Assembly: GCA_902780135.1 (NCBI GenBank)
Contig: CACZEK010000013.1
Location: 46,470 to 110,469 of the forward strand
Length of the DNA stretch: 64,000 nt
Direction of reading: 5' to 3'
Origin: an uncultured bacterium
GTDB taxonomy: Bacteria > Verrucomicrobiota > Lentisphaeria > Victivallales > UBA1829
Shown here: positions 250-35,761 of the stretch, piece by piece
Layout: every line of letters begins with the position of its first letter
Position numbering within the stretch: position 1 is the first letter of the stretch
Translations under genes and position numbers: made by a program
Notes under the pieces: model-generated
The model's database searches: none
What the model saw: only the letters and a program-made list of their open reading frames with translations
What the model was told of the DNA's origin: nothing

Positions 250-640
250 CCGGTTTGATGACAGCCAGCGGGGGATAAGGCTCGGTTTTATGACAAGAAA
301 CTCCGAAAAGCGTTTACCGCGATATCGGATTTAAGTTCAAAATCAAATATCATAATCAATAGAATCGGGAGTATTTCGCCTCAAATCCGTGAACTTGGAA
401 ATCAAAAATCGTTCCGGTCAAACTGCCCCGATTTTCCCCCCTCAAATCGGCTCTCACGGCTACCACAAAACTGCTAAAACAGCCCTCGAAAGCTTAGCAG
501 ATTGGCGCTTTTCGGGACCGACGGGGAGTCAGAAAGGGGGATGCCGGGTGACCCGGTTAGCAGATTTTGAGCTCAATTCTGAGGGGAAGATACGAAAAAA
601 GCCCGGTGGAATCCATCGGGCTTGAAGAATCGAATGGTGG
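250..640. repeat. Direct repeat, copy A (~390 bp; has an extra 42-bp segment at 412-453 relative to copy B)
   Basis: Aligned by eye to 12250-12599. Only about a dozen substitutions from 'atgacaagaaactccgaaaag' (290) to 'gaagaatcgaatggtgg' (640). More diverged in the first ~40 bp. Similarity stops abruptly at 640/12599. Confidence 0.9.
595..621 (-). terminator. Rho-independent terminator-like hairpin inside repeat copy A
   Basis: GCCCGGTGG-AAT-CCATCGGGC forms a 9-bp stem with one G-U pair at 601-621. A6 at 595-600 gives a U6 tract after the hairpin on the minus strand. It lies downstream of the minus-strand gene 883-2757. On the plus strand it is followed only by the weak tract TTGAAGAAT. Confidence 0.55.
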
Positions 641-882
641 CAAGGACCGATTATAAGCCTGTGACTGCTAACAACGCACAACTATTTTGCTTGATTTGTG
701 CTCAAATTACATCTTTTAATTGGCTGTTTAGCAATTTCCTGTTAGCAATTATTAGCTAAGTTTCTAAAGCATAGGTTTTGGTGACTTTAGTTTATGGGCT
801 TTTTTGATTGATGGGTACCATTCCCCCAAAAAAAGGAATCCTGCTAATACCACGCCATAGGTACTCGCATCGTTTCTGTCAA

Positions 883-2757
883 TCATCCCACCACGATCTC
901 GACGGACTTGCCACAGAACGCGACCCCGTATTTGAGGACGGAGGACTTTTTCCTCGAGCTCAACTGAGCGTCATAGCGTTTTTCATTGATTTGCTTCAAG
1001 GCTTCTCCGGCCAGTTTTTTCAACTGGGCCTGTGTGCATTTCTGGGCAGCTTTGAGCTCAATCAGGATTCCCGGCAATTGTTCGTTCCCTGGCTTCGGCG
1101 ACAGACAGATGTCGTACCGACCTTCTCCTGCCTCGCGGTTTGAGGAAACTTCGTACCGATTATCCATGACCGTGCAGAGTCCCAACACGAGACCGTGGTA
1201 GAAGTTTTCATGTGCCGTATCAAACGAGCTCACGGATACCAGAAGAAGATTCCGCAGCGCCCCCTCAAGCATAAGCTTGTCGCCGGAGTAAAGCGCCTCC
1301 TGAATCGCGATTGCCGTGGACTGAGGGAAGACGACGTTCATCTTCTGCAGGATTTCCTTGTTGTAGACGAACGTGATTTCCTTGTTTGGCAGGGCCAGTT
1401 CGCAGATGAAGTCGCCGCTGAACGACTGTTCGGACTTGACGATCTTCAAATATCCCGCCACGAGCAGGAAACTGTAGATCGAAGACGGATTGTCGCGGAT
1501 TTGAGGGTAGATCACGCTGGTGTCGATGTAGGAAGTGATGGTTTTCCCCTGAATCAACAGGTTCAGCTTGTCGTACACGCCGTTGTCCGCGGTCGCCAGA
1601 ATCTCGCCGACCACGGAATTGCTGCCGGTCGACTGCCAGTAGGCGCGAGGTTGGCACTCGTTGCCGAAGAAGTTGATGACCGACCACGGATTGAAGATGT
1701 CGGTATTGCCGAAGCGGTAGCCGTCGTACCATTCGCAGATCTCCTGATACTTGTCGTCGGCGCGGTAGTAATGCGCCATGGCCTTGACTTCCTCGTGCGT
1801 GAAGCCGAAATATTCGCTGTAGCGGTTGTCGAGGATGGTGTTGATCTTCGGGTTGTTCAGACCGCTGAATATGCTTTCCTTTGCGACCTTGAGAATCCCG
1901 GTCAGGAATCCGAACGACAGATGGCTGTTGTCCTTGAACCCGCCCGAAAAGAGGTTCCGCATGAAGTGGATAATGGAATCGTAGAATCCCCTCACATGGC
2001 CCTGATGGATGGGCGTGTCGTATTCGTCCACGATGATGATCGGCGCGATCCCGTAATGCTTATGGAGCAGCTCGGAAAGCGTTGAGAACGACGCCTCGAT
2101 CTCCGCTGAGTTCGCGTTCCCGTCCAGGATCGCCTTCATTTTCTTTTTCTCGTAGCTGTTCAGCTTCGGACTCTCCAGCAGCTCCAGATGCCGTTCGAAC
2201 TCGCGCTGAAGGAGATTGCAGATGTTGGTGTAGGTGTCTTCCCAGGTCAGGCACTTCACATCCTTGAACGAGACGAAGATCACGGGGTACTTTCCCTGAT
2301 AATCCCGGTATTTCCGGCCGCATTTCCAGATGTTGCGGTCCCGGAAATAAACGGAGGTGTCCTCCTCGCTGCGCTCGAAAAACGTGCGGAGCATGTCCAT
2401 GTTGAGCGTCTTTCCGAATCTGCGAGGTCGCGTGAAGAGCGAAACAAGCGGGCGTTCATCCAGAATATCGCGGATCAGCAGGGTCTTGTCGACGTAATAG
2501 TATTCCGTGGATGCGAGGCGATAATCCGAGACGCCGATGGGAAGCGGGAGGCTGCCCTGAGCTTGAATCTCCTGCTTTCTGTATGCGCCGTTCCGGATGC
2601 GACGGTCGACGGGCTTTTCCGTATCGGCGGGGATTTGCCACGAGCGTCCCTTCTTCACGGCCCCATGAATCGTTCCGTTGCTGCACAGTTCGCTCACACG
2701 GCGTTCCGTCAGGTTCCACCGTTCCGCCATCGTCCGGGTTGTTTCCATTTTCTTCAT
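883..2757 (-). CDS. AAA-ATPase_like + C-terminal PD-(D/E)XK (PDDEXK_9-type) nuclease-domain protein with an N-terminal HTH
   Basis: 624-aa ORF. N-terminus 'MAERWNLTERRVSELCSNGTIHGAVKKGRSWQIP' is MerR/excisionase-like HTH. 'YYYVDKTLLI..L......SLFTRPRRFGKTLNMDMLRTFFE' and 'IIIVDEYDTP' are the P-loop-like and Walker-B-like signatures of the AAA-ATPase_like family. The C-terminal 'GRYDICL....ILIELK' is typical of PDDEXK_9. Confidence 0.85.
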   Translation of the reverse strand: MKKMETTRTMAERWNLTERRVSELCSNGTIHGAVKKGRSWQIPADTEKPVDRRIRNGAYRKQEIQAQGSLPLPIGVSDYRLASTEYYYVDKTLLIRDILDERPLVSLFTRPRRFGKTLNMDMLRTFFERSEEDTSVYFRDRNIWKCGRKYRDYQGKYPVIFVSFKDVKCLTWEDTYTNICNLLQREFERHLELLESPKLNSYEKKKMKAILDGNANSAEIEASFSTLSELLHKHYGIAPIIIVDEYDTPIHQGHVRGFYDSIIHFMRNLFSGGFKDNSHLSFGFLTGILKVAKESIFSGLNNPKINTILDNRYSEYFGFTHEEVKAMAHYYRADDKYQEICEWYDGYRFGNTDIFNPWSVINFFGNECQPRAYWQSTGSNSVVGEILATADNGVYDKLNLLIQGKTITSYIDTSVIYPQIRDNPSSIYSFLLVAGYLKIVKSEQSFSGDFICELALPNKEITFVYNKEILQKMNVVFPQSTAIAIQEALYSGDKLMLEGALRNLLLVSVSSFDTAHENFYHGLVLGLCTVMDNRYEVSSNREAGEGRYDICLSPKPGNEQLPGILIELKAAQKCTQAQLKKLAGEALKQINEKRYDAQLSSRKKSSVLKYGVAFCGKSVEIVVG

Positions 2758-3202
2758 ATCGACCTCCGATCTTCCGCTGTTTGAACATAACTATACACCC
2801 GATTCGGAACAATGTCAAGTCTTATTCGGAATTATTCCGAAAGAAATGTGATATTGTTCCGAATCATCATGCCGTGCGTGAAGGAAAAGCCTGTGCTTTT
2901 GACCTCTCCAAAAAGGCTATAACAACGGCGATCGGGAAGGGCATGAGCAGATTGGATTGGAAGGGAAACGGGAAATGACATTTTCAAGACAGTGTCGCAA
3001 TCGTGACCGATGTGTCGCCGGTTTTCCTGAACTTGTTTGCCCCGTGATCCTCGCGGAAGCGACAAATCGTTAAAAAAACTTCCGTTTCGGCTTGATTATA
3101 CGGCATTTTAGGACTATAGTATTGCACGATTTGTACTGCACCCGCCTCAACAACCCCTCGTGACCGGGCGACCGACCTCGTTGCCCGGCGAAATGGAATC
3201 CG

Positions 3203-5077
3203 ATGATCAATATCCGCAAGCTGGAAGCCGACCTCTGGGAATCCGCCGATCTACTCCGCGCCGATTCCAAGCTCACCTCGAATCAATACTGCATGCCCGT
3301 CCTGGGGCTGATCTTCCTGCGTTACGCGTACAGCCGGTTCAAGAAGGTTGAGGCGGAGATCCTGAAAAACCGTCCTTCGCGCGGCGGAAAGATCATGCCC
3401 GTGGAGGCCAGCGATTTTGCGGCGAAGAGCGCGCTGTATCTGCCGAGGGAGGCGCAGTACGAGTTCCTGGTCAATCTGCCCGGCGACATCGCGTCCGCAG
3501 GGCTGACCGGCATCGACGGCCACCCGGTCAAAAGCCTCGGCGAGGCGGTGAACAACGCCATGCTGCTGATCGAGGCGCAGAGCGAACAGCTCACCGGCGT
3601 CCTCCCCCAGACCTATACCGACTTTTCCGATGGTCTCCTCGCCGAGCTGCTGCGCATCTTCAACAACGACCAGATCGACTCCGTGGGCGGCGACGTGATC
3701 GGCCGCATCTACGAATACTTCCTGAACAAGTTCGCCAAGAACATCGCATCCGACGACGGCGTATTCTTCACGCCGAAATCCCTGGTGAAGATGATCGTGA
3801 ACGTCCTCGAACCGAAGAAGGGCACCCTGCTGGACCCCGCCTGCGGTTCGGGCGGGATGTTCATTCAGAGCGGCGACTTCGTGAACGCGGCGGGCATGAA
3901 CGCCAACAGCTCCATGACATTCTTCGGGCAGGAGAAGGTGAAGTACAACGCCCAGCTATGCCTCATGAACATGGCCGTGCACGGCCTGACCGGGAAGATC
4001 AAGTCCGGCGACGACGCCAACAGCTTCTACCACGACGCCCACAACCTGAACGGCTGCTGCGACTACGTCATGGCGAATCCGCCGTTCAATGTGGACAAGG
4101 TCAAGGCCGAATCCTGCGAGAACGCGGGGCGTCTCCCGTTCGGGCTCCCCGGCGTGAACAAGAAGACCAAGGAAGTCGGCAACGCCAACTACCTCTGGAT
4201 CTCCTACTTCTACTCCTACCTCAACGAACGCGGCCGGGCGGGCTTCGTCATGGCGTCCTCCGCCACGGACAGCCAGGGCAAGGACAAGGAAATCCGCGAA
4301 AAGCTCGTCCGGACCGGACATGTGGACGTGATGGTCTCGGTCGGGAACAACTTCTTCTACACCAAGTCGCTGCCGTGTTCACTGTGGTTCTTCGACAAGG
4401 CGAAGGGCGAGAAGGCCAAGGGCAAAGTGCTGTTCCTCGACGCCCGGAACTACTACACCGTGGTGGACCGCACCCTGAACGAGTGGAGCGAATGGCAACT
4501 GAAGAACCTGAACGCCATCGTGTGGCTTTATCGCGGCGAGGTGGAGAAATACACGGCCCTGCTGAAAGAATACCGCGCCGATCTCCGCGCGAAGGCCGAG
4601 GCCGCCGACTTCGAGAAGCAGGCGCTGGAAAAAGCCGTTCGTCAGGAAACGTTCGCAGACATCGTGTCCGGCCTGACCGAAGCCCATGCCGCCTTGCAGA
4701 AGACGGCGAAAGCCGAGGTGGAAGCAGCCGAAAAGCGCGAGAAGAAGAAAGTCCAGCAGCTTTTCGAGGACCGGATCGAATACGTTGAAGACATGCTGAC
4801 CGAAGCGAAAGAAGCGCAGTGGCTCGTCGAGAAATTCGGCGACGGCGTTTATACGGACGTGCTCGGCCTCTGCAAGGTGGCGGACATCGACGAGATTGAA
4901 GACAAGGGCTGGTCGCTGACTCCCGGCGCATACGTGGGCGTTGCGCCCGTCCAGGACGATGGTGTGGACTTCGCCGGTCGCATGGCGGAAATCCATCGGG
5001 AACTCCTCGCGCTTCAGGCGGAATCCAACGCCCTCATGGACACCATCTCGAAAAACATGAAGGAGATGGGGCTGTGA
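3203..5077 (+). CDS. hsdM: Type I restriction-modification system, DNA methyltransferase subunit HsdM
   Basis: 624-aa ORF. N-terminal HsdM_N-like 'LWESADLLRADSKLTSNQYCMPVLGLIFLRY'. SAM motif 'LLDPACGSGGMF'. Catalytic N6-adenine motif 'VMANPPFNV'. Overlaps the hsdS start (GTGA at 5074-5077). Confidence 0.95.
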   Translation: MINIRKLEADLWESADLLRADSKLTSNQYCMPVLGLIFLRYAYSRFKKVEAEILKNRPSRGGKIMPVEASDFAAKSALYLPREAQYEFLVNLPGDIASAGLTGIDGHPVKSLGEAVNNAMLLIEAQSEQLTGVLPQTYTDFSDGLLAELLRIFNNDQIDSVGGDVIGRIYEYFLNKFAKNIASDDGVFFTPKSLVKMIVNVLEPKKGTLLDPACGSGGMFIQSGDFVNAAGMNANSSMTFFGQEKVKYNAQLCLMNMAVHGLTGKIKSGDDANSFYHDAHNLNGCCDYVMANPPFNVDKVKAESCENAGRLPFGLPGVNKKTKEVGNANYLWISYFYSYLNERGRAGFVMASSATDSQGKDKEIREKLVRTGHVDVMVSVGNNFFYTKSLPCSLWFFDKAKGEKAKGKVLFLDARNYYTVVDRTLNEWSEWQLKNLNAIVWLYRGEVEKYTALLKEYRADLRAKAEAADFEKQALEKAVRQETFADIVSGLTEAHAALQKTAKAEVEAAEKREKKKVQQLFEDRIEYVEDMLTEAKEAQWLVEKFGDGVYTDVLGLCKVADIDEIEDKGWSLTPGAYVGVAPVQDDGVDFAGRMAEIHRELLALQAESNALMDTISKNMKEMGL

Positions 5078-6213
5078 TTAAGACTACTGTGCGAGAACTG
5101 GGAAGAGTGGTAACGGGGCATACTCCTCCAACAACAAAAAAGGAATACTATGGGGATAAATATCTTTTCCTAAAACCGACAGATATGGTTATAGGACAAA
5201 AACACGCTTATACAACGGAAGAAGGCTACTCAGAACTCGCAGCAACTAAATATAAGAGCAGTTTAATTCCAAAAGGTTCGACCTGTGTTGTATGCATTGG
5301 AACTCTTGGTGAAAAAATGGCAATGGCCCATTGCGATCTTTTTACAAATCAATCTGTCAATTCAATTATACCAAATGACAATTATGACCCTGATTATGTG
5401 TATTATCTCTTAAAGCATAACCTACATAAAGTAAAAGCCTTAAATAAAGGAACAGCATCTGGCCGAGAATTTGTTTCAAAGACCACATTTTTAGATCTTG
5501 AAATAGAGGTAATAGACAATTTAAATATCCAAAGAAAAGTGAGTAGCATTCTTTCCTCTTTTGACGATTTGATCGAAAACAATCGGAAGCAGATCAAATT
5601 GCTGGAAGAGGCGGCGCAGTGGCTTTATAAAGAATGGTTTATCGATCTCCATTTCCCCGGTTATGAAACCACCCCCATCCACGATGGCATCCCTGAAGGA
5701 TGGCGGAAGGAAGGATTAGGTGGTTTGGCACCCATTATTACTGGAAAGAAAGATGCAAATTTCGGAACTGAGGACGGAGTTTTTCCATTCTTTACATGTG
5801 CGCAAGAACCAATAAAAGCACCATCGTATTCCTTTGATTGCAATGCGGTTATCCTTGCAGGAAATGGGGACTTTAATGTAAAAATATACAGAGGGAAGTT
5901 TGAGGCTTATCAACGAACGTATGTGCTTTCACCCAAAGATGACAAACATCTTTTTTTATTATTCCACGCTGTCCGGGGAAACATGATGCATCTTTTTAAG
6001 GCGGCAAGCGGTTCAACGATAAAATTCTTGACAAAAGGCATGTTGGAGAATATCCCGGTATTCGTTCCTTCCGAGGATATTTTGAATATGTACTATGCCA
6101 TCTGCGAAGCAATCCAATGTTCGATAGAATGTCTAAAACAACAAATATCCTATTCTCAAGAAGCCCGCAATCGTCTTCTTCCCAAACTCATGAATGGAGA
6201 AATGGAGGTTTAG
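5074..6213 (+). CDS. hsdS: Type I R-M specificity subunit HsdS
   Basis: 379-aa ORF with a GTG start overlapping the hsdM stop. It has two variable halves separated by the conserved helical spacer 'FDDLIENNRKQIKLLEEAAQWLYKEWF', and ends with the second conserved helix 'ARNRLLPKLMNGEMEV'. AT-rich, as is usual for hsdS. Confidence 0.9.
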   Translation: MIKTTVRELGRVVTGHTPPTTKKEYYGDKYLFLKPTDMVIGQKHAYTTEEGYSELAATKYKSSLIPKGSTCVVCIGTLGEKMAMAHCDLFTNQSVNSIIPNDNYDPDYVYYLLKHNLHKVKALNKGTASGREFVSKTTFLDLEIEVIDNLNIQRKVSSILSSFDDLIENNRKQIKLLEEAAQWLYKEWFIDLHFPGYETTPIHDGIPEGWRKEGLGGLAPIITGKKDANFGTEDGVFPFFTCAQEPIKAPSYSFDCNAVILAGNGDFNVKIYRGKFEAYQRTYVLSPKDDKHLFLLFHAVRGNMMHLFKAASGSTIKFLTKGMLENIPVFVPSEDILNMYYAICEAIQCSIECLKQQISYSQEARNRLLPKLMNGEMEV

Positions 6214-6216
6214 AAA

Positions 6217-7950
6217 ATGGAACATCACACTCTCGACAATTGGAGTAAGGATTTTAGGCCTGACGGGCTCTTATACTTTACACAGCGCATTGAAGAAATG
6301 TTAACCCCCTCTACCGACCACATCTTTAAAATGCCGGTTCTTAATACGGCTTTATTGGTTGACGAATATTTGGAAAATGCAAAATTAGTTCGAGAAGGCA
6401 TAATCGATCCTATTCATTTAGAGCATATTATGGAAGAGTTTCGAGCTTCGTTCGAAGATGACATTGTCCTCAAAAAGAATCTTAAAGAGCAAGACAAACG
6501 ATCTGTTCTTCAAAAGATCGAAAGTAAAGAAGATAATTATGAAAATGTATTGGGATATGTAAAGCTTCTTCTTCGAGATTATCAGGTGTGGTGTAAGGAG
6601 ATGCTGCTGGATTATGTTCCGCAGGACAACAAAAAAAAGGAAATAGAGCAATTGATCAGATGTTATATTCCGGGATTGATCTCTTCCGGATACAGCAGTG
6701 AATTTGTCTGTCGTTACAATACAAAGATATTCAACACGGAGCCTGTGAATTCTTTTGATTCGCTTAATGCTTTTCTAAATCGGTTTGACTTCAAAAAAAG
6801 GAAATACGCTGTATATATTGCAATTGATGCCAACGTCATCAAATTCCGAAAAGTACTTGAAAAACGATTAAGCGTTGATTTCGAGCCATTCAAAGACAAT
6901 ATAGACATTCCGTATGACAAAGAGAAATATATCCTAAGCAGGATTCAAATCACCGACCTGGATGAACAATCTGCGGCAAAGAAAGCATATAAACATCTAA
7001 ATACCTTTTTTACCTACTATCGTCTTTTGGGGGAACAGGAAGAGAATTGGTACTTTAACGATGTGCGGGTTGTTGATGAAAAAAAACAGATTTCTAAAGC
7101 TGTATTAAAAACCTCTGGATTAAATCGTTCCAACAATCAAAATACAGAGGTTCTGGCAAGTTATGCCGATTACTACATAATTTCGCTGCAATCGAATGCC
7201 AGGAAAGCATATCAGCAAATCAATCGGGCAATTGATTTGCATAACATAGCAATTGACGATATTGATATAAAAAACCGTTTCCTTAATTTTTGGTCGACTT
7301 TGGAAATATTGTTCGTTTCGGATAAAAACATGCCCACAATTAATGAGATTATATATAAAATGGTGCCAATTTTACAAAAGGATTATTTGGATTATCTTTT
7401 TTACTGGTTTAATACTGAAATACTTAAACTAAAAGAGCAGCTAGGTCTTGATTCTCTTGCAGAACAGATTGAGGAGGACAAAAATGATATCTTGTGGCCT
7501 ATTTATATTGCTGCATTAAACAAGTATTCAGCACAACGCGACGAACTGTATTTATTTCTTAAGGATTATCCGTTATTACGCAATAGGCTTTTTCAACTAA
7601 ATGAGATGTGTCACAACAAGGCAAGACTTGCAAAGATTGTAAACGAACACGGAGAGAGAGTTTCCTGGCATATAAAACGCTTGTACAGGACGAGGAATGC
7701 TATTGTCCATTCTGGAATATGCCCCAACAATCTTCAAGAACTAACAGATCATCTCCATGGTTATGCAGACCAGTGTTTGAATGAATTAATAATCCTGTTA
7801 TCTAGAAAAAGACAATTAGAAAGTATTTCTAATGCACTAATTGACGTCCAATTCCGAACCGAAGAGATCATGGCCACATTACATGATCAATCACCAATTA
7901 ACAAAGATGAGCTGTTATCCATCTTATATTTTTGGTCTCAATTCTCGTAA
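6217..7950 (+). CDS. Uncharacterised 577-aa protein with a C-terminal HEPN-like R-x4-H motif (Abi-like)
   Basis: The ATG is 4 nt after the hsdS stop. Very AT-rich: sampled 60-nt lines give roughly 27-42% G+C, against ~60% in hsdM/hsdR. 'RLYRTRNAIVHSG' (about 7678-7716) matches the HEPN Rx4-6H signature, and is preceded by a helical region ('INRAIDLHNIAI...FLNFWSTLEILF'). I recognise no other domain. Confidence 0.7.
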   Translation: MEHHTLDNWSKDFRPDGLLYFTQRIEEMLTPSTDHIFKMPVLNTALLVDEYLENAKLVREGIIDPIHLEHIMEEFRASFEDDIVLKKNLKEQDKRSVLQKIESKEDNYENVLGYVKLLLRDYQVWCKEMLLDYVPQDNKKKEIEQLIRCYIPGLISSGYSSEFVCRYNTKIFNTEPVNSFDSLNAFLNRFDFKKRKYAVYIAIDANVIKFRKVLEKRLSVDFEPFKDNIDIPYDKEKYILSRIQITDLDEQSAAKKAYKHLNTFFTYYRLLGEQEENWYFNDVRVVDEKKQISKAVLKTSGLNRSNNQNTEVLASYADYYIISLQSNARKAYQQINRAIDLHNIAIDDIDIKNRFLNFWSTLEILFVSDKNMPTINEIIYKMVPILQKDYLDYLFYWFNTEILKLKEQLGLDSLAEQIEEDKNDILWPIYIAALNKYSAQRDELYLFLKDYPLLRNRLFQLNEMCHNKARLAKIVNEHGERVSWHIKRLYRTRNAIVHSGICPNNLQELTDHLHGYADQCLNELIILLSRKRQLESISNALIDVQFRTEEIMATLHDQSPINKDELLSILYFWSQFS

Positions 7951-8219
7951 TTGTATTTATGTGTCGCATTTTTTAAACTGTAATACAATGTATGAGACAA
8001 GATTGCGTTATTCTTGGAGCAAACAATTAAAGAAATGAGGAATAACATGATAAAACAACCAAGATGGAAAACGGTTGAGTATTCCCGAACAAGAATAAAA
8101 GCGCGGGATCAACCGTAAAAAACAAACAAGCTTCTGAACAGGAAATAGATGAAGCAAGAAAAGTTATCGACAATTGGCGTGCCGCTCATGCCTTTCCTCT
8201 TCATGTTTTATACGTTCAT

Positions 8220-9098
8220 TTGCGGAGAATGGCAAAAGGTCGAAATGGCATTATTGTTGCAGAAAGACTGAAAAGACTGAAATCCATTGTAAAAAAACTA
8301 AGGAAAGGACATGCAAACAACCTCTTGACGATGCAGGATTTAGGGGGATGTCGTGTTGTTGTTCCAACAATAAGCGACGTCTATCAATATGCCTCGGATT
8401 ATGACAAATCAAAGAAACGTCATGTCCGGATGCCTGATGATGACTATATAATGAATCCGAAAGCTTCAGGATACCGAAGCCTGCACAGAGTTTACAAGTA
8501 CTGCAGCGACAGGAATCCGAAATACAATGGCATGTTGATCGAAGTTCAGTTCAGAACGCATCTTCAGCACATTTGGGCTACGGCGGTCGAAACAATGGGG
8601 TTGTTTACTGGCAAGGATATTAAATCGGGAGAAGGCTCTCCGGATGTCAAACGTTTTTTTGCACTAGTCTCTTCCTTGTTTGCTATTAAGGAAAAACAGC
8701 CGGTTGTTCCCGGAACGTCAGACCAGATTGACGAACTTGTGAATGAGCTTAAAACAATTGAGAGCAGAAGGCGTTATTTGGATCATCTCAATGGATTTAA
8801 AGTCGTGGTCGAAGCTAATTTGCACCAATATAAGAGGGATCCCCCCTATGTTATCTTATTTTTGGACTACAAAAAGAAGCATCTCGTGGTCATGCCATTC
8901 AAATCCAGTGAAATTGAAACGGCAAACGTCAATTACAGCGAAATAGAAATAGGTAAAGACGCATCAAGGGTTGACGCGGTGCTGGTTCGTGTGTCTTCCG
9001 ATATCAACGAACTGAAAAAAGCCTATCCGAACTATTTCTCCGATATTGAAGAATTTGTAACTCTTGTAAAAAAATACCTGGAAGGGGACGCATCATGA
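8220..9098 (+). CDS. RelA/SpoT-homolog (RSH) nucleotidyltransferase-domain protein. The ORF as tracked is N-terminally short; the full gene is probably 8047-9098 with a frame change near 8097-8100.
   Basis: Synthetase-domain signatures are 'LGGCRVVV', 'ASGYRSLHRVYKY' and 'IEVQFRTHLQHIWATAVE'. A ~150-aa C-terminal extension of unknown function follows. The stop overlaps the hsdR start (ATGA at 9095-9098). See the frameshift finding. Confidence 0.8.
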   Translation: MRRMAKGRNGIIVAERLKRLKSIVKKLRKGHANNLLTMQDLGGCRVVVPTISDVYQYASDYDKSKKRHVRMPDDDYIMNPKASGYRSLHRVYKYCSDRNPKYNGMLIEVQFRTHLQHIWATAVETMGLFTGKDIKSGEGSPDVKRFFALVSSLFAIKEKQPVVPGTSDQIDELVNELKTIESRRRYLDHLNGFKVVVEANLHQYKRDPPYVILFLDYKKKHLVVMPFKSSEIETANVNYSEIEIGKDASRVDAVLVRVSSDINELKKAYPNYFSDIEEFVTLVKKYLEGDAS

Positions 9099-12000
9099 GT
9101 TGGGATTATTCTGAAAATATCCTTGTTCAGGAAAGCGCGGGGAAACTGCTTCAGGATGAGCTTGGCTGGAATGTCAAGTTCGCGTACAACACGGAGGAGC
9201 TGGGCGTTGACGGGACTTTCGGACGGAAGTCGTACCGGGACATCCTGCTCGTGCGGTATTTCCGCGAAGCGCTGAAACGGCTCAACCCGTGGATGACCGA
9301 GGATCAGATATCGGAAGCTCAGAAGAAACTGGAAAACCGCCTGTCCACCGCGTCGCTGCTGCAGACGAACGAGGAGAAGTATTTCCTGATCCGCGACGGC
9401 ATCCCGGTGACGGTCAAGAAGCCTGACGGGAAGACGGAGACGAAGACCGCCACGGTGATCGACTTCCGGACCCCGGAGAACAACGAATTCCTGGCGATCA
9501 AGGAGCTGAAGATCCACGGAGAGCTGTACCGGAGGCGGACGGACATCGTGGGCTTCGTGAACGGCCTTCCGCTGCTCTTCGTGGAGCTGAAGAAGACGGC
9601 GGTGGACGTGCGGCACGCCTATGAGGACAATTACACCGACTACCTGGACACGATCCCGCATCTTTTCTACTACAACGCGTTCCTAATCCTCTCCAATGGC
9701 ATGGAGGCGAAGGTGGGGACGCTCGGCAGCAAGTACGGGTTCTTCCACGAATGGAAGCGTCTGGCGGAAAAGGACCCGGGCAACGTGGAGCTCCAGACCA
9801 TGCTGCGCGGCATCTGCCGGAAGGAAAACTTCCTCGACCTCCTCGAAAACTTCATCCTCTACGACCGGTCCAACGGGACCACGGCCAAAATCCTTGCCCA
9901 AAACCACCAGTACCTCGGCGTGAACGAGGCTGTCAGGGCGTACGAGTCGCGCAAGCTCAACAGCGGGAAGCTGGGCGTCTTCTGGCACACGCAGGGATCC
10001 GGCAAGAGTTATTCCATGGTCTTCCTCGCGAAGAAGATCCGCCGCAAATTCGCGGGATCGCCGACGATCGTGGTGCTGACCGACCGCGACGAGTTGAACA
10101 ACCAGATCAGCGAGACGTTCGAGAACTGCGGATTGCTCGGCAATACGAAGGCGGAGACGTTCATTGCCACCAGCGGCGATAACCTTGTCCAGAAGCTGAA
10201 AGGAAACCCCGGGTTCATTTTCACGCTGATCCAGAAATTCAACAAGCCGGACGAAACGCCGATCCGCCCCGACCACGATATCATCATTTTTTCGGACGAG
10301 GCGCACCGGAGCCAGTACGGCATTTTCGCAAGCAACATGGTGAACCTGCTCCCGACGGCCGCACGCATCGGTTTCACCGGGACGCCGCTGCTTTCCAGCG
10401 ACAACATCACCGCCCGCACCTTCGGCGGCTACGTCTCCGTGTACGACTTCAAGCGCGCCGTGGAGGACGGTGCAACCGTCCCGCTGTATTACGAGAACCG
10501 GGGCGAGAAGATCCAGAACCTGCACAACCCGGAGATCACGGACCGCATTCTGGACGCGATCGAGAACGCGGACATCGACGTTGACCAGCAGGCCAAACTG
10601 GAAGCCGAGTTCGCGAAGGAAATCCACCTGATGACCGCCGAACCGCGCCTGCGGTCCATCGCCAAGGACTTCGCAGGACATTATTCCGACCTGTGGACCA
10701 GCGGGAAAGCGATGTTCGTGTGCCTGAACAAGGTCACGTGCGTCCGCATGTACAACTATGTGCGGGAGTATTGGGACAAGGAGATCGAGGCGCTGAAGGC
10801 GCAGATCAAGACGGCCACGCAGCAGGAGGCGATGGAGCTGGGGCGCAAGCTCAAGTGGATGCAGGAAACGGAGATGGCCGTGGTCATCAGTCAGGAGCAG
10901 AACGAAATCCAGACCTTCGAGAAATGGGGCCTCGACATCAAGTATCACCGCGAGAAGATGGAGAAACGGAAGCTCGATAAGGAGTTCAAGGATCCCGCGA
11001 ATCCGCTCCGCGTGGTCTTCGTCTGCGCCATGTGGCTGACCGGGTTCGACGTGAAGTGTCTCTCCTGCCTGTACCTCGACAAGCCGTTGAAAGCGCACAC
11101 ACTGATGCAGACGATCGCGCGCGCCAACCGCGTGAGCGAGGGGAAGAGCAACGGACTGATCCTCGACTACATCGGCATCGTCAAGGCCCTTCGCAAGGCG
11201 CTCGCCGACTACACGGCGAACGTCGGCGGTCAGGGCGGCGATGATCCCGCCGTGGACAAGAGCAAGCTGATCGAACACATCCTCGCCACGATCCGGACGG
11301 CAAGGGCGTTCCTGAAAGCCCATGATTTCGAGCTGAACGACCTGATCGCCGCCACCGGGTTCGATAAGATGTATCTGCTGAAGAAGGCGGCGGACGCCGT
11401 TTGCACGAATATGGAGGACCGGAAGACGTTCTGCACCTGTGCGGCGGAGCTGAAGCGGCTCATGAAGTGCGCCGACCGCGATGACGTCACGCAGGAAACG
11501 CGCAAGGAATACGACGCGATCACGGCGATCTATGCCGAACTTCAGAAGAAGCGCATCCACGCCGACACGACCGATCTGATGGTCCAGATCAACTCGATCA
11601 TCAGCGAATACGTCGAGCTGGAGGACGCACCGGCCGGAGGAGATAAGAAGCCGCCCCGGATCGACATCAGCAAGATCGACTTTGACCGCCTGCGCCGCGA
11701 ATTCGAGAAGGTCAAAACGAAGCATCTGGTCATGAAGGAACTGGAGGAGCTGATTCAGCAGGGGTTGGCGCGCATGCTGCTGTCGAATCCGAACCGCATC
11801 AACTATTACGAACGGTATCAGAAAATCATCGAGGCGTACAACAGCGAACAGGACCGCGCCACGATCGAAAAGACCTTCATGGACCTGATGGCCCTGGCGG
11901 ACAGCCTGAACGAGGAAGAGCAGCGGTATGTGCGGGAAGGATTTTCCAGCGACGAGGAGCTGTCCATGTACGACATGCTGTTCCGGGACGACCTGTCGAA

Positions 12001-12232
12001 GAGTGATATTCAGAAGCTCAAGAAGGTCGCCGTCGATCTGCTCCGGAAGGTCAAGGCGAAGATCGCTGAGTTCGATCACTGGACGGACAAGCAGTCCACC
12101 AAGTCGGCGGTTGACAATCTGATTCGGGATATCCTGTGGAACGGATTGCCGGAGAGCTACGACGAATACATTGCCGAGTACCGCCAGAAAGTCTATGAGT
12201 ACGTCTACACGCGCTACAAGGAAGTGTCGTGA
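9095..12232 (+). CDS. hsdR: Type I restriction enzyme, endonuclease/translocase subunit HsdR
   Basis: 1045-aa ORF. Walker A 'WHTQGSGKSYSMVFLA'. DEAH box 'IIFSDEAHRSQYG'. Helicase motif VI 'QTIARANRV'. N-terminal nuclease region 'DIVGFVNGLPLLFVELKK'. Confidence 0.95.
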   Translation: MSWDYSENILVQESAGKLLQDELGWNVKFAYNTEELGVDGTFGRKSYRDILLVRYFREALKRLNPWMTEDQISEAQKKLENRLSTASLLQTNEEKYFLIRDGIPVTVKKPDGKTETKTATVIDFRTPENNEFLAIKELKIHGELYRRRTDIVGFVNGLPLLFVELKKTAVDVRHAYEDNYTDYLDTIPHLFYYNAFLILSNGMEAKVGTLGSKYGFFHEWKRLAEKDPGNVELQTMLRGICRKENFLDLLENFILYDRSNGTTAKILAQNHQYLGVNEAVRAYESRKLNSGKLGVFWHTQGSGKSYSMVFLAKKIRRKFAGSPTIVVLTDRDELNNQISETFENCGLLGNTKAETFIATSGDNLVQKLKGNPGFIFTLIQKFNKPDETPIRPDHDIIIFSDEAHRSQYGIFASNMVNLLPTAARIGFTGTPLLSSDNITARTFGGYVSVYDFKRAVEDGATVPLYYENRGEKIQNLHNPEITDRILDAIENADIDVDQQAKLEAEFAKEIHLMTAEPRLRSIAKDFAGHYSDLWTSGKAMFVCLNKVTCVRMYNYVREYWDKEIEALKAQIKTATQQEAMELGRKLKWMQETEMAVVISQEQNEIQTFEKWGLDIKYHREKMEKRKLDKEFKDPANPLRVVFVCAMWLTGFDVKCLSCLYLDKPLKAHTLMQTIARANRVSEGKSNGLILDYIGIVKALRKALADYTANVGGQGGDDPAVDKSKLIEHILATIRTARAFLKAHDFELNDLIAATGFDKMYLLKKAADAVCTNMEDRKTFCTCAAELKRLMKCADRDDVTQETRKEYDAITAIYAELQKKRIHADTTDLMVQINSIISEYVELEDAPAGGDKKPPRIDISKIDFDRLRREFEKVKTKHLVMKELEELIQQGLARMLLSNPNRINYYERYQKIIEAYNSEQDRATIEKTFMDLMALADSLNEEEQRYVREGFSSDEELSMYDMLFRDDLSKSDIQKLKKVAVDLLRKVKAKIAEFDHWTDKQSTKSAVDNLIRDILWNGLPESYDEYIAEYRQKVYEYVYTRYKEVS

Positions 12233-12249
12233 CGGACACGACGGTGAAG

Positions 12250-12599
12250 CCTGTTTTATCGACCATTGCCGTGGGGTAAGGCTCTGTCTTATGACAAGAA
12301 ACTCCGAAAAGCATTTACCGCGATATCGGATTTAAGTTCAAAATCAAATATCATAATCAATAGAATCGGGAGTATTTCGCCTCAAATCCGTGAACTTGGA
12401 AATCAAAAATCGTCACGGCTGCCACAAAACTGCTAAACCAGCCCTCGAAATCTTAGCAAATTGGCGCTTTTCGGGACCGACAGGGAGTCAGAAAGGGGGA
12501 TGCCGGACGTCCCGGTTAGCAGATTTTGAGCTCAATTTTGAGGGGAAGATACGAAAAAAGCCCGGTGGAATCCATCGGGCTTGAAGAATCGAATGGTGG
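12250..12599. repeat. Direct repeat, copy B (~350 bp), immediately after the hsdR stop
   Basis: See copy A. Begins ~18 nt after the hsdR stop codon. Lacks the 42-bp segment. Confidence 0.9.
12554..12580 (-). terminator. Terminator-like hairpin inside repeat copy B (same hairpin as 601-621)
   Basis: Identical GCCCGGTGG-AAT-CCATCGGGC hairpin at 12560-12580, preceded by an A6 tract. It may also stop plus-strand hsdR transcripts, but the plus-strand U tract is weak. Confidence 0.5.
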
Positions 12600-12852
12600 A
12601 GTATTCCATTCAAAAATAGAAAACCGCTAATGACCGCACGGGAATAAACGGATAATCGTCATGTCAAATAAAGAGAGCGATTCCCGCTTCAAGAAAGCAT
12701 GAATAACGCTTATCTTTCCGCTAATGTCCAACTCGGCCAACGGGGTGAACGTTAGCTGTCTTCAAAAATGAGATAATTTCTTTGGGGGTGTCTGCTTTTG
12801 TGGTATCGACGTCTTTGGGGGTCAGGTCGCGCAATCATCCTCTGCAAAAAGA

Positions 12853-13185
12853 CTAAAGATTGTAGAATTGTCGGAGCATCGCCAAAAGTTCAACTTCAGT
12901 TTCAATGAGTGCTGTTTCGGCAATTCGGTTCAGTGCTTCCGTTGTGACAGCTGCGACTTTTTCTGGCAAGGGAAAAGATCCGTCCGGCAAACCGTCAGCA
13001 AGACGAAAAATATCCTGTCGATGTTTTTCAATGTTGGCAAAGTCTTTCTGGGAAGGATTCTCTTTCCGTGACAGATCTAGCAATGCACAGCATTTCAACG
13101 TCATCAGTCCTTCCAGACACATGTAGGAAATGTTATCGGAAATCTTGTATATTCCATCGTAAAAAGCCGGGAAGCTGTGAAGCAT
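12853..13185 (-). CDS. Hypothetical 110-aa protein (weak call)
   Basis: Isolated ORF in a lower-GC gap between repeat copy B and tssC2. No recognisable motif and no obvious RBS checked. Confidence 0.3.
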   Translation of the reverse strand: MLHSFPAFYDGIYKISDNISYMCLEGLMTLKCCALLDLSRKENPSQKDFANIEKHRQDIFRLADGLPDGSFPLPEKVAAVTTEALNRIAETALIETEVELLAMLRQFYNL

Positions 13186-13364
13186 CGCTCCTGCAGCTCA
13201 GAGCCGGTTCTTGCTGTTGATGGGTGTGTAGTTTTCTTTTCATTTTCCCGATAGTGCCCCTTGAAAATGGAACGTTCCGCAATATATTAAAGGTAGATAG
13301 GTCTTTTTCGAGACGCAATCCCCCCCCATGAAGTAACATCCCATGAACAGGCAGGCCATACGAA

Positions 13365-14885
13365 ATGAAACCATCGGCTTATGCGGAAGAAGTCAAAGCA
13401 GAAGTGACTGCGCCTGCCGGAATTGAACAAGTTCGGGATGATCCTCCGCCTGAGCGGACGGAAGATCCCTTCGGGCTTCTCCTCGCTGAAAAAAGAGATG
13501 AAGAGGAGCGTCAAACGGGGATAGCGGCGCTGCTGAAAACGATTCTGCAGAACAGCAGCATGGCTGACGGGACAACGGACCCCGAGGAACTGATCGCCGG
13601 CATCATCGCCGAGATCGACAAGCGGCTTTCGGCACAGATCAACTTGATCCTGCACAATGAAGCATTCCAGCGGCTTGAGGGCACATGGCGCGGGCTTCAC
13701 TATCTCGTTTTTCAGTCTCCCACCGCCAACGACATCAAAATACGGGTCCTGAACCTATCGTTTCACGAGATGTTCAGCTGCCTGAAAAAATATCCCGGAA
13801 CGACCTGGGATCAGAGTCCCCTGTTCAAACTGATCTACGAATCCGAATTCGGGACGGCGGGCGGCGAGCCGTTCGGCTGCCTGATCGGGGATTATTATTT
13901 CGACGAAACGCCACCCCGCGTGGAAACGCTGAAGAGGATCGCGAAAATCGCGAGCGCAGCACACGTCCCGTTCATCTCGGGGACGTCGCCGGCGGTGATG
14001 AATATGGATTCCTGGCAGGAGCTCGCCAACCCCAGGGATTACAGCCGCATCTTCAATTCGCCCGAATATCTGACATGGCGGAACCTGCGGGACAATCCGG
14101 ACAGCCGGTATATCGCACTGACGCTGCCGAGAGTCCTGGCGCGCATCCCGTACGGGAGCCGGACTTCGCCTGTCAACGGAATGGATTTCGAGGAAGACGT
14201 GGGTGCTGGAGTCCCGCACAATCACTGCTGGATGAATGCGGCGTTCGTCATGGGGGGCAACGTGATCCGGGCGTATGCGAAATATGGCTGGTGCGTCCGC
14301 ATCTACGGATTCGACGGCGGAAGCTGCACGGATCTACTGCCATCCGGGCAATACCCGTTTTACGAGGATTCCCCGGTCCCGTCCCCGCTGGAGATCGCGA
14401 TCACGGACCAGCGCGAGACGGAGCTTTCCCGCAACGGTTTTCTGGCACTGTGCAGCCTGAAAAACACGAACCGCGCGGTATTCCAGAGCGGACAGACGCT
14501 GTATAAAGCCAAAACGTTTTCAACCAATGCGGCCACAAAGAACGAGGAATTGTCTTCCAAACTGCCCTGCGTATTCGCTGTAAGCCGTTTCGCGCACTAC
14601 CTGAAGTGCATCCTGAGAGACAAGATCGGCGGATTCCAGGCCCCGAAGGAAATGGAACGATGGCTGAACGACTGGCTGGCGGACTATGTATCCGGGGACC
14701 CGGACGCCCCGGACGAGATCAAGGCGAAATACCCCATGGCCGAGGCGCGCGTCAGAGTGGTCCCGCATCGGGATAAACCCGGTCACTTCGAAGCGGAGAT
14801 ATACCTTCGTCCGCACTATCAGCTCGACGGCCTGACAGCGGCAATCAAACTGATCGCGCAAATTCCGGAAAGAGATAAGATCTGA
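13365..14885 (+). CDS. tssC: T6SS contractile sheath large subunit TssC/VipB, second paralog (no adjacent tssB)
   Basis: 506 aa. Collinear with the 495-aa TssC at 34268-35755, with shared blocks such as 'TAGGEPFGCLIGDYYF', 'MNMDSWQ', 'RFAHYLKCI.RDKIG.F' and 'YLRPHYQL.GLT'. Identity is roughly 55-65% by eye after the first ~75 residues, which are unalignable. Confidence 0.9.
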   Translation: MKPSAYAEEVKAEVTAPAGIEQVRDDPPPERTEDPFGLLLAEKRDEEERQTGIAALLKTILQNSSMADGTTDPEELIAGIIAEIDKRLSAQINLILHNEAFQRLEGTWRGLHYLVFQSPTANDIKIRVLNLSFHEMFSCLKKYPGTTWDQSPLFKLIYESEFGTAGGEPFGCLIGDYYFDETPPRVETLKRIAKIASAAHVPFISGTSPAVMNMDSWQELANPRDYSRIFNSPEYLTWRNLRDNPDSRYIALTLPRVLARIPYGSRTSPVNGMDFEEDVGAGVPHNHCWMNAAFVMGGNVIRAYAKYGWCVRIYGFDGGSCTDLLPSGQYPFYEDSPVPSPLEIAITDQRETELSRNGFLALCSLKNTNRAVFQSGQTLYKAKTFSTNAATKNEELSSKLPCVFAVSRFAHYLKCILRDKIGGFQAPKEMERWLNDWLADYVSGDPDAPDEIKAKYPMAEARVRVVPHRDKPGHFEAEIYLRPHYQLDGLTAAIKLIAQIPERDKI

Positions 14886-34267: not shown

Positions 34268-35755
34268 TTATTTTGCGCTGGGGACCTTGCTGACGAGACG
34301 AAGCGACGTCGTGAGGCCTTCCAGCTGATAGTGCGGACGCAGATAGAACTTGGCGTTGTAGTAGCCGGGTTGTCCTTCCACTTCTTCGATTTCGACCTTC
34401 GCTTCCGCGAGAGGATATTTCGCCTTCACTTCCTCGGATGCGTTCGGATCGCTGGTCACGTAATTGGCGATCCAGTCGCTCAGCCAGCGCTGCATGTCGG
34501 CGGCTTCCTTGAAGGAACCGATTTTGTCACGGACGATGCACTTCAGGTAGTGGGCGAAACGGCAGGTCGCGAAAATGTAGGGCAGACGTGCGGAAAGATT
34601 GGCATTTGCCGTTGCATCGGGGTTGTCGTACTCCATCGGCTTGTTGACGGTCTGGCCGCCGAGGAACACCGCATAGTCCGTGTTCTTCCAGTGGCAGAGC
34701 GGCAGGAAACCGTTCTTGGAAAGTTCGGCCTCGCGGCGGTCGGTGATCGCGATCTCGGTCGGGCACTTCATCGCCTTGCCGCCGTCGTCGGTCGGGAAAA
34801 CGTGGGTCGGCAGACCTTCGACCGCGCCACCGGATTCCACGCCACGGATGCGGGCGCACCAGCCGTACTGGGTGAAGGAACGGTCGATGTTGGCGCCCAT
34901 GGCGAATGCGGCGTTCATCCAGGTGTACTTCTCGCTGGCGCCGGCACCGGTGTCTTCCTCAAAGTTGAATTCCTCGACCGGGTTGGTCGTGGCGCCGTAG
35001 GGCATGCGGCTGAGCACGCGGGGCATGGTCAGTGCAACGTAACGGCTGTCTTCCGACTCGCGGAAGCTTCTCCAGGCCGCATATTCCGGGGTGGAGAAGA
35101 TCTTCGTGAGGTCGCGCGGATTGGAGAGATCCTGCCAGGAATCCATGTTCATGATGGACGGTGCGGCCGCGGAAATGAACGGCATGTGGGCCGCGGCGGA
35201 AATCTGGGCCATGCCTTTGAGGATTTCGAGGTCCGGAGCCGTGTGATTAAAATAATAGTCGCCGATGAGGCAGCCGAACGGTTCGCCGCCGGCGGTTCCG
35301 TATTCATCTTCGTAAAGGCGCTTGAAGATCGGACTCTGGTCCCAGGCCGTGCCTTTGTATTTCTTCAAAGTCTTGGCGAGGTCCTTTTTGGAGACATTCA
35401 TCACGCGGATCTTCATGTTTTCGCTGGTCTCGGTATTGTTCACGAGATAACTCAGGCCGCGCCACGAACTTTCAAGTTCCTGGAATTTGTCATTGTGAAT
35501 GATCAGGTTGACCTGGGCGCTGAGTTTCTTGTCCAGTTCCGCGATGATGCCTTCAATGGTCTTGACCGCGTTGTCGGAAACGAGATTGGCGTTTTCCAGT
35601 GCCTGACCGACGAGCGTTTTCACCGCGCTCTGTACAGCCAGATTGGCCTCGTCGGATTTCGGTTTGAACTCCTGGTTCAGAAGTTTCTCGAAATCGGACA
35701 TCTCAACGGTTTCGGCCTTGAGATCCTGAACGGAAAGTTTGTTTGCATCAGCCAT
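34268..35755 (-). CDS. tssC: T6SS sheath large subunit TssC/VipB (paired with tssB)
   Basis: 495 aa, directly downstream of tssB. Conserved blocks as listed for 13365-14885. Confidence 0.95.
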   Translation of the reverse strand: MADANKLSVQDLKAETVEMSDFEKLLNQEFKPKSDEANLAVQSAVKTLVGQALENANLVSDNAVKTIEGIIAELDKKLSAQVNLIIHNDKFQELESSWRGLSYLVNNTETSENMKIRVMNVSKKDLAKTLKKYKGTAWDQSPIFKRLYEDEYGTAGGEPFGCLIGDYYFNHTAPDLEILKGMAQISAAAHMPFISAAAPSIMNMDSWQDLSNPRDLTKIFSTPEYAAWRSFRESEDSRYVALTMPRVLSRMPYGATTNPVEEFNFEEDTGAGASEKYTWMNAAFAMGANIDRSFTQYGWCARIRGVESGGAVEGLPTHVFPTDDGGKAMKCPTEIAITDRREAELSKNGFLPLCHWKNTDYAVFLGGQTVNKPMEYDNPDATANANLSARLPYIFATCRFAHYLKCIVRDKIGSFKEAADMQRWLSDWIANYVTSDPNASEEVKAKYPLAEAKVEIEEVEGQPGYYNAKFYLRPHYQLEGLTTSLRLVSKVPSAK

Positions 35756-35761
35756 GATTCG

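Follow-up and report, generated by a model that had tools for sequence, protein, structure and literature searches.

A defence-gene islet between two homeologous copies of a tRNA-Phe(GAA) downstream block in an uncultured Lentisphaeria bacterium

The window analysed here is a stretch of 64,000 nt from contig CACZEK010000013.1 of an uncultured bacterium (assembly GCA_902780135.1; Lentisphaeria, Victivallales, UBA1829). Near its left end, an islet of defence-type genes lies between two long direct repeats (copies A and B of one repeated unit), and the origin of the repeats and of the islet is the subject of this report. An earlier inspection of the letters, referred to below as the sequence-only reading, had described two near-identical long repeats that differ by about a dozen substitutions and a 42-bp indel at 412-453, and defence-type cargo between them, namely an AAA-ATPase/PD-(D/E)XK gene and hsdMSR with an embedded gene pair. 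Repeat search, alignment and self-BLAST bore out the repeats, and the cargo proved to be as described. The features of the islet and its borders, in window coordinates, are as follows.

247-640: repeat copy A, tRNA-Phe 3'-flanking block, defined by homology and alignment
649-882, no strand: non-coding end of the islet ("spacer") with four TTAGCA/TGCTAA motifs, at 666, 728, 742 and 842
883-2757, minus strand: AAA-ATPase_like + PDDEXK_9 protein of 624 aa, whose homologues also carry a weak HTH_17 match
3203-12232, plus strand: type I restriction-modification (R-M) operon
3203-5077, plus strand: hsdM
5074-6213, plus strand: hsdS
6217-7950, plus strand: orphan protein of 577 aa, alone in its 90% cluster, with no Pfam, PADLOC or other family match
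8220-9098, plus strand: RelA_SpoT-like protein, PADLOC candidate PDC-S33
9095-12232, plus strand: hsdR
12247-12599: repeat copy B, left-truncated at the hsdR junction, with a hairpin at 12560-12580, defined by homology and alignment

In the repeat search of the window, the two copies appear as two pairs of segments, each 95% identical (269-417 with 12270-12418, and 454-640 with 12413-12599). MAFFT and a global alignment give 14 substitutions within 269-640, confirm the single 42-nt indel at 412-453, and reveal perfect identity over the 99 nt from 313 to 411. The right edge common to both copies is TGGTGG (635-640 and 12594-12599), both terminate in AATGGTGG (633-640 and 12592-12599), and both contain the hairpin GCCCGGTGGAATCCATCGGGC (601-621 and 12560-12580). 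The left edge of copy B, set by homology to copies outside the window, is 12247. The stop codon of hsdR occupies 12230-12232, and copy B begins 14 nt later; its adjacency to hsdR thus stands, with a slightly shorter gap than the approximately 18 nt estimated before. A sensitive self-BLAST detected no third copy in the 64 kb, which gives two copies in all.

The AAA-ATPase/PD-(D/E)XK protein has no PADLOC match. The organism is probably a gut member of the uncultured Lentisphaeria: both the cluster members at 90% identity or more and the homologues at 69% are listed as metagenome-assembled genomes (MAGs) of Lentisphaeria/Victivallales. By domain annotation of its proteins, the islet lacks integration and transfer genes. 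The GC content over 5074-9098 is 0.38, compared with 0.55 across the window as a whole; it ranges from 0.34 to 0.44 in hsdS and the two genes between hsdS and hsdR, and from 0.56 to 0.62 in hsdM and hsdR. The low GC content of hsdS and the embedded genes suggests that they are a cassette inserted into the R-M operon. The AAA-ATPase gene and hsdM are separated by a divergent promoter region (2760-2940) in which TTCGGAA/TTCCGAA palindromes are repeated, for example TTATTCGGAATTATTCCGAA. Since they are kept in the related contigs L016 and L017, these palindromes may be an operator of the AAA-ATPase gene.

The nature of the repeated unit becomes apparent from related contigs, which are given by L numbers. 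A 22-mer of the unit scanned against JGI metagenomes yielded four contigs, and homologues of the AAA-ATPase were used to reach L016, L017 and L018; the related contigs come from human-gut metagenomes. Scanning a 20-mer of the unit against 185,579 GTDB species genomes gave no true match and one chance match of 23 nt, in a Herbinix MAG, which implies that the lineage is absent from the GTDB species representatives. In L008 and L009, the unit is present in a single copy, and its right end abuts an intact tRNA-Phe(GAA) on the opposite strand (67.9 bits with the Rfam tRNA model in L008). In L017, an intact tRNA-Phe lies beside a diverged block. Because the unit runs straight into the intact tRNA-Phe(GAA) in L008 and L009, it corresponds to the region immediately 3' of this tRNA. 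By their gene context, these contigs show that the repeated unit is a conserved non-coding block directly downstream of tRNA-Phe(GAA) in a Lentisphaeria-like lineage. As read from the aligned copies, the block consists of the tRNA terminator hairpin and approximately 330-500 nt rich in TTAGCA, CCTCAAAT and TTGAGCTCAA motifs. The tRNA-related features are listed below, together with those of the middle of the unit.

595-621, minus strand: intrinsic terminator of the lost tRNA-Phe, with the hairpin at 601-621 and then the minus-strand TTTTTT at 595-600
635-648, minus strand: remnant of tRNA-Phe(GAA), its last 14 nt (GGTCCTTGCCACCA), a 14/14 match forming an attachment (att)-type junction at the left end of the islet
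12594-12599, minus strand: CCACCA, the sole part of the tRNA-Phe 3' end left at copy B, with divergence right after it (AGTATTCC...)
140-246, no strand: left extension of the tRNA-Phe downstream block, in copy A only, 87-89% identical to L007, L008 and L018
412-453, no strand: 42 nt in copy A that are absent from copy B, a mid-unit indel hotspot
L007 273-282; L008 11219-11228; L016 11537-11546; L018 5923-5932: inverted tRNA-derived copy at the left edge of the block
L001 12047-12064; L003 86-103; L008 10936-10953; L009 357-374: mid-unit palindrome

The terminator-like hairpin that the sequence-only reading had placed at the end of both copies is indeed there; what was missed is that it is a minus-strand terminator belonging to tRNA-Phe. 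Because TTTTTT comes after the hairpin on the minus strand of the window, the hairpin can be assigned as the tRNA's own terminator. It directly follows the intact tRNA-Phe in L008, L009 and L017, and its stem still pairs despite changes in the diverged copies of L016 and L017. No other segment of the window matches tRNA-Phe better than 635-648 (E 0.013), which is located where L008, L009 and L017 have the intact tRNA. At the left boundary stand 14/14 nt of the tRNA-Phe 3' end and at the right boundary CCACCA only, and most of each repeat is DNA from downstream of the tRNA. Since the unit represents the DNA 3' of tRNA-Phe(GAA), and the 3' terminus of that tRNA closes each copy, the islet lies in what is, by this context, a classic tRNA-linked integration hotspot. 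The opposite edge of the block also bears a trace of the tRNA. At its left edge in the window, 140-150 (TGTCACCAGTT) is an inverted 11-nt match to tRNA-Phe positions 45-55, and an inverted variable-loop/T-stem (T-arm) sequence of 10-12 nt (GTGTCACCAGTT; GTCACCAGTT) is found at the left edge elsewhere as well. Consequently, the block is flanked by tRNA-derived sequence on either side. Additional direct T-arm copies are present in L017 (8234-8243) and in L018 (5125-5134 and 5384-5393).

The contigs reached through the AAA-ATPase illustrate how the cargo at this site changes. L016, whose AAA-ATPase is 98% identical in amino acids, shares 464-2939 of the window at 93% nucleotide identity overall. 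The high identity is confined to a module of the AAA-ATPase gene, its promoter region and the 230-nt spacer (649-2940), with approximately 92% in the spacer (649-882; read by eye from the alignment), and the adjoining block is at about 73%; the step in identity falls exactly at the tRNA remnant. Beyond 2940, L016 continues with two unknown proteins, an 803-aa HATPase_c_3 protein, a C5 DNA methylase and HipA_C. In L018 (AAA-ATPase 88% identical in amino acids), the block is 96% identical to that of L008, and the position of the L008 tRNA is taken by TGGTGG, TCAAAAGC, a 19-nt T-arm remnant, a second T-arm-like fragment and the AAA-ATPase gene, with HTH/HipA also in the cargo. By this arrangement, L018 resembles the L008 site in an occupied state. 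In L017 (also 88%), the block is diverged and contains an internal T-arm fragment, and the contig also has a small helix-turn-helix (HTH) gene, the AAA-ATPase, HipA_C and the intact tRNA-Phe. The sequence AATGGTGG is invariant in 6/6 aligned copies, and what comes after it differs in four ways: CAAGGACC in copy A, AGTATTCC in copy B, TGTACCCC (8 nt) in L016 and TCAAAAGC in L018. These four continuations after an invariant sequence point to a recurrent breakpoint at the tRNA CCA end, which is characteristic of site-specific insertion at tRNA 3' ends.

The site is thus polymorphic, being empty in L008 and L009 (block and tRNA) and occupied at copy A and in L016 and L018. Copy counting, empty sites and other cargo had been named as things to look for, and the findings are two copies in the window by self-BLAST, single copies beside the tRNA in L008 and L009, and different cargo in L016 and L018. 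The alternative named there, a ubiquitous dispersed repeat, does not agree with the distribution of the unit. A dispersed element resembling a repetitive extragenic palindrome (REP) or a miniature inverted-repeat transposable element (MITE) was rejected, as there are only 2 copies in 64 kb and 8/8 outside copies either adjoin tRNA-Phe or its remnants or reach the contig end first.

Comparison of the two copies by segment shows that their similarity is uneven. Over 247-296, A and B are only 68% identical, and copy B is there 98% identical to L008/L007. Over 297-417, A and B are 99% identical, and each is only 86-87% identical to L008. Over 459-640, A and B are 95% identical, and A, B and L008 are equidistant at approximately 95%. 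With segment identities of 68, 99 and 95%, a recent duplication in situ is excluded. Judged by this alignment, the copies are homeologous and not a fresh duplication, and the mosaic fits a history in which two diverged versions of the block would have been brought together and the central segment then converted.

The middle of the unit has been lost twice. Compared with the full-length unit (ERZ27280320, L008, L009 and L018), copy A is missing 25 nt immediately ahead of 412, namely the palindrome TATCATGCACCTTCGTTTGCATTAT, and 67 nt are missing from copy B. In the full-length unit, this palindrome reads ATAATGCA-CCTTCGTT-TGCATTAT. Relative to the near-identical strain of the independent metagenome assembly ERZ27280320, the palindrome is missing from both window copies through distinct deletions of 25 and 67 nt that share their left edge, and contigs L006 and L007 likewise terminate at the mid-unit deletion site. 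The palindrome was considered as a dif/lox-like site and rejected: no other copies exist, and its shape alone speaks in favour.

The block and the adjoining spacer are also linked by motif content. The window contains 24 TTAGC/GCTAA sequences, 15/24 of them within 0-1 kb and 12-13 kb. In 250-883, TTAGCA is observed 7 times against 0.30 expected, a count reached in 0/1000 dinucleotide shuffles; three of the seven lie in the unit and four in the spacer at the islet end. The spacer alone, with 4 observed against 0.36 expected, again has a count that 0/1000 shuffles reach. AAAACTGCTA(A/T), the palindrome TTGAGCTCAA and CCTCAAAT recur across all lineages. In L016 and L017, the block uses ATAGCA, and the spacer of L016 retains TTAGCA, which suggests a TTAGCA-type lineage as the origin of the spacer module. 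The arrays resemble binding sites for a protein and may, for example, be att arms; the enrichment of TTAGCA in both the unit and the end spacer would be as expected of two arms of one att region.

Based on the results presented above, the explanation that somewhat outweighs the rest, and which we consider probable rather than secure, is that the islet is an element of the cis-mobilizable element (CIME) type, devoid of an integrase and forming part of a tandem array at a tRNA-Phe integration hotspot, which entered as a circle with its own core and block. The circular element would have borne its own tRNA 3'-end core plus block and recombined with the resident tRNA-Phe plus block, through a site-specific reaction at the CCA end or close to it, or through homologous recombination within the block. 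Copy A would then be the resident block, left with 14 nt of the tRNA and lying on the left, and copy B the block that came in, placed on the side of the tRNA, with the islet comprising 649-12246 together with copy B. In a later event at the same CCA-end breakpoint, DNA of the present type VI secretion side would have replaced the tRNA body, and gene conversion would afterwards have homogenised 297-417. As to the future of the islet, the shared orientation of the copies and their perfect match over up to 99 nt make its RecA-dependent loss, or its excision as a circle of approximately 12 kb, possible. In this respect, the suggestion that the repeats are recombination handles holds, since they are long and similar enough for homologous recombination; the ERZ27280320 assembly graph is compatible with deletion or excision and is no proof of it.

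Several observations weigh against this explanation of the islet as a CIME-type element. The tRNA remnant at copy B is just 6 nt long. ARAGORN finds no tRNA of any kind, and so no intact tRNA-Phe, in the 64 kb of the window or along the approximately 10 kb that contig L010 adds on the right, which leaves the proposed array without a visible anchor, and the window holds no other tRNA-Phe fragment that could serve as the far end of a putative array. Neither the annotated open reading frames (ORFs) of the window nor any of the related contigs bearing the block include an integrase or recombinase. Recombinase domains are likewise missing from the islet proteins, from the other scanned window ORFs and from the called genes of L003, L010, L016, L017 and L018, as the sequence-only reading had stated for the window. 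In classical tRNA islands, the direct repeats consist of tRNA sequence and measure 15-50 nt; in the present case, approximately 96% of each repeat lies outside the tRNA. The "empty" sites belong to other lineages (block identity 85-96%) and not to the same species. The block was not found in phage, plasmid and viral collections (three scans of viral contigs, and BLAST against phages and plasmids). The more distant homologues of the AAA-ATPase (70-81%) are not tRNA-linked and stand beside AbiEii, Bro-N or helicase genes. The idea that this family is generally tRNA-linked was dropped on finding these homologues in other defence or toxin-antitoxin contexts, and the gene is thus a common resident of defence islands and not a proven mobility gene. 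Finally, that the element carried its own block is deduced from the integrated form.

Homologous exchange only, which we regard as unlikely but worth weighing, would do without any site-specific step: the block would be no more than chromosomal flank, transformation or conjugation would have brought in the islet with a flank copy on a circularised fragment, integration would have followed in the Campbell manner, and the tRNA remnants would be deletion scars. Long homeologous repeats with a perfect core are the expected trace of a single crossover, and an integrase was found nowhere in the scanned proteins and contigs. On the other hand, four independent junctions lie directly after the same TGGTGG, T-arm remnants are repeated in L018 and L017, and the sharp identity step of L016 coincides exactly with the tRNA remnant. 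These three traits are more typical of site-specific events at the tRNA 3' end.

That the unit is a functional RNA gene, either a small RNA (sRNA) or a 3' trailer of tRNA-Phe, whose function accounts for its conservation and duplication, is improbable. The block is kept at 85-96% while both flanks change, and a sigma-70-like TTCAAA-N18-TAGAAT (336-365 and 12337-12366) coincides with the most conserved stretch. One compensatory pair in CTGCTAA...TTAGCAG and a CCGG-loop-CCGG hairpin with a variable loop also speak for an RNA. However, there is no Rfam family even at E<=10 (tRNA only in the full-length L008 block, and 0 hits in the window at the gathering score), folding z-scores are only -0.5 to -2.1 (single-sequence, both strands), the plus strand has no U-tract after the hairpin, and mid-unit deletions of 25 and 67 nt are tolerated in the window copies. 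Moreover, the covarying motif recurs in direct and inverted form, like a protein-binding site. RNAalifold on six copies finds compensatory change only in the terminator and in the one CTGCTAA...TTAGCAG pair, and concerted change of a repeated protein-binding motif explains that pair equally well. The suggestion that the unit could encode an RNA is thus weak, and the covariation analysis proposed to check it yielded only the tRNA terminator and this one motif pairing.

A duplication in situ, in which a single intergenic element received the islet and approximately 370 bp were doubled in the act of insertion (a giant target-site or replicative duplication), is very unlikely. The copies do share orientation, TGGTGG ends and a 99-nt identical core. 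The segment identities given above (68% in 247-296, where copy B is 98% identical to L008; 99% in 297-417; 95% in 459-640), the absence of 140-246 from copy B and the unequal tRNA remnants (14 and 6 nt) all speak against it. We know of no transposition mechanism that duplicates 370 bp. Thus, of the earlier proposal that the islet duplicated a pre-existing intergenic element, the pre-existing conserved element stands, and its duplication by insertion is not supported, the copies being homeologous with unequal tRNA ends.

Just as unlikely is an assembly artefact or episome, in which the islet would really be a circle of approximately 12 kb with one unit, or be present in some cells only, and the contig path would reflect graph resolution. 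The ERZ27280320 assembly breaks exactly at the repeats: its islet is a separate contig of 12,149 bp (L001) with an identical 123-nt stretch of the unit at either end, and its 80-kb contig L003 starts inside the unit and continues into type VI secretion genes. A repeat-collapsed graph of this kind cannot separate the integrated form from a circle plus an empty site. Against this, the different deletions of the two copies are just 99 nt from the distinguishing site 312, a distance that ordinary reads can bridge. In addition, the copy-specific single-nucleotide polymorphisms agree between both assemblies, and the window proteins also occur together on an NCBI contig of 138,788 nt.

A more speculative idea, to which we give very little credence, is that the block and the end spacer are the two att arms of a family of integrase-less defence islets with specificity for tRNA-Phe, whose conserved HTH/AAA-ATPase/PD-(D/E)XK protein mediates insertion. 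This protein, the only conserved gene of the family and not a tyrosine or serine recombinase, would bind the TTAGCA arrays, and insertion would take place next to the tRNA CCA end. If this were true, the reaction site would include the palindrome that is missing from both copies, and the islet of this strain would be locked in. A motif-rich block acting as the att arm of a non-canonical enzyme would be new biology; the present evidence does not require it.

The least credible proposal, that the unit encodes a small basic protein (plus-strand ORF 389-625 / 12390-12584, 86-99 aa in full-length units), draws on a frame that is open in copies A and B, L008, L009 and L018 and that the 25- and 67-nt deletions, with an extra C in a C-run, restore relative to L008 (net -24 and -66 nt), but coding was ruled out by codon-position counts that match control frames (variable sites 6/12/6 by codon position; 15/18 variable codons alter the amino acid, the same as in control frames), and the ORF has no Shine-Dalgarno sequence, no conserved stop position and a shifted frame in ERZ27280320, and is called as a gene in no contig.

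With the CIME-type explanation preferred, the islet can be compared with known systems. In the tandem ssrA islands of Dehalococcoides, approximately 85 bp are conserved around each 20-bp repeat, and some islands have no integration module (PMC3146451); the islet resembles them in both respects. Tandem accretion and integrase-less CIMEs are established, for example ICESt1/CIME in Streptococcus (PMC5704250). Like islands at tRNA or tmRNA 3' ends, the islet has foreign cargo of deviant GC content beside a tRNA 3'-end remnant, recurrent breakpoints at the 3' terminus, a site that is empty or occupied depending on the lineage, and a tandem arrangement. It differs from them in repeats of 350-390 nt that include only 6-14 nt of the tRNA each, in the lack of an integrase nearby and of an intact tRNA within at least 64 kb (approximately 74 kb with L010), and in repeats that are homeologous (68-99% by segment) and not copies of one att core. 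With CIMEs, it shares the absence of integration and transfer genes, flanking att-like repeats and a place at the end of a target gene, in tandem with further inserted DNA. In contrast to CIMEs, no cognate integrase of an integrative and conjugative element (ICE) or integrative and mobilizable element (IME) has been identified, the att sites are putative remnants only, and the repeats are an order of magnitude longer, with a motif-rich block outside the target gene. Campbell-type integration similarly gives long direct repeats of the homology region around an insert, reversible by recombination, yet on its own it leaves the CCA-end breakpoints in four contexts and the repeated T-arm remnants unexplained. 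As in defence islands and hotspots, variable defence or toxin-antitoxin cargo lies beside a conserved anchor: type I R-M and PDC-S33 in the window, C5-methyltransferase/HATPase/HipA in L016, and HTH/HipA in L017 and L018. Unlike in those, the anchor is the tRNA-Phe flank block plus an AAA-ATPase/PD-(D/E)XK gene of unassigned function. The framework of tandem accretion and CIMEs is therefore already known, and the islet is not bracketed by a new kind of element; what is unusual is the length and homeology of the repeats, with approximately 96% outside the tRNA, and the absence of both the integrase and the tRNA.

Downstream of copy B, a type VI secretion system (T6SS) cluster occupies 13365-37380, and the two are separated by the following segment.

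12600-13223, no strand: flank from copy B to the conserved start of the T6SS, not common to the 89%-TssC relative L012/L013

In L012/L013 (TssC 89%), similarity to the window begins only at 13224. A comparison of 641-900 with 12600-12860 gave no significant right-flank similarity (z = 2.3). In L014, a 67%-identical T6SS cluster of the same gene order lies beside IS66 and a Phage_integrase that abuts a tmRNA 3' end (L014 1-4955), and the window T6SS cluster is therefore plausibly inserted DNA too, which counts in favour of the proposed tandem array. The first gene of the cluster is a second TssC-like sheath gene (13365-14885) with no tssB beside it, and the canonical tssB-tssC pair lies at 34268-36283 on the opposite strand to it. 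A 52-nt element with the inverted repeat GCTAATGTCCA...TG(A/G)ACGTTAGC occurs at 12716-12767 and 58785-58836 (77% identical), once upstream of the T6SS cluster and once between genes in the vicinity of cobW. A regulator with affinity for the TTAGC motif, which is also the one enriched in the unit, may use this element as its operator. Elsewhere in the window, a repeat of approximately 1.1 kb (42795-43997 and 45860-46945, 81%) reflects two adjacent hybrid histidine kinase genes (39297-44054 and 44096-47002), whose HisKA-HATPase-receiver modules are paralogous.

In general, an unexplained pair of long repeats becomes recognisable as a probable tRNA-Phe-anchored hotspot that swaps defence cargo, including type I R-M with an embedded RelA/SpoT-like candidate system, C5-methylase/ATPase sets and HipA toxins, in a nearly unstudied gut lineage of Lentisphaeria. 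Island boundaries may accordingly be long homeologous blocks outside the tRNA, with neither an integrase nor a remaining tRNA, and finders that rely on tRNA genes, integrases and short direct repeats would miss such islets. The repeats also predict that the 12-kb islet may be lost spontaneously or excised as a circle.

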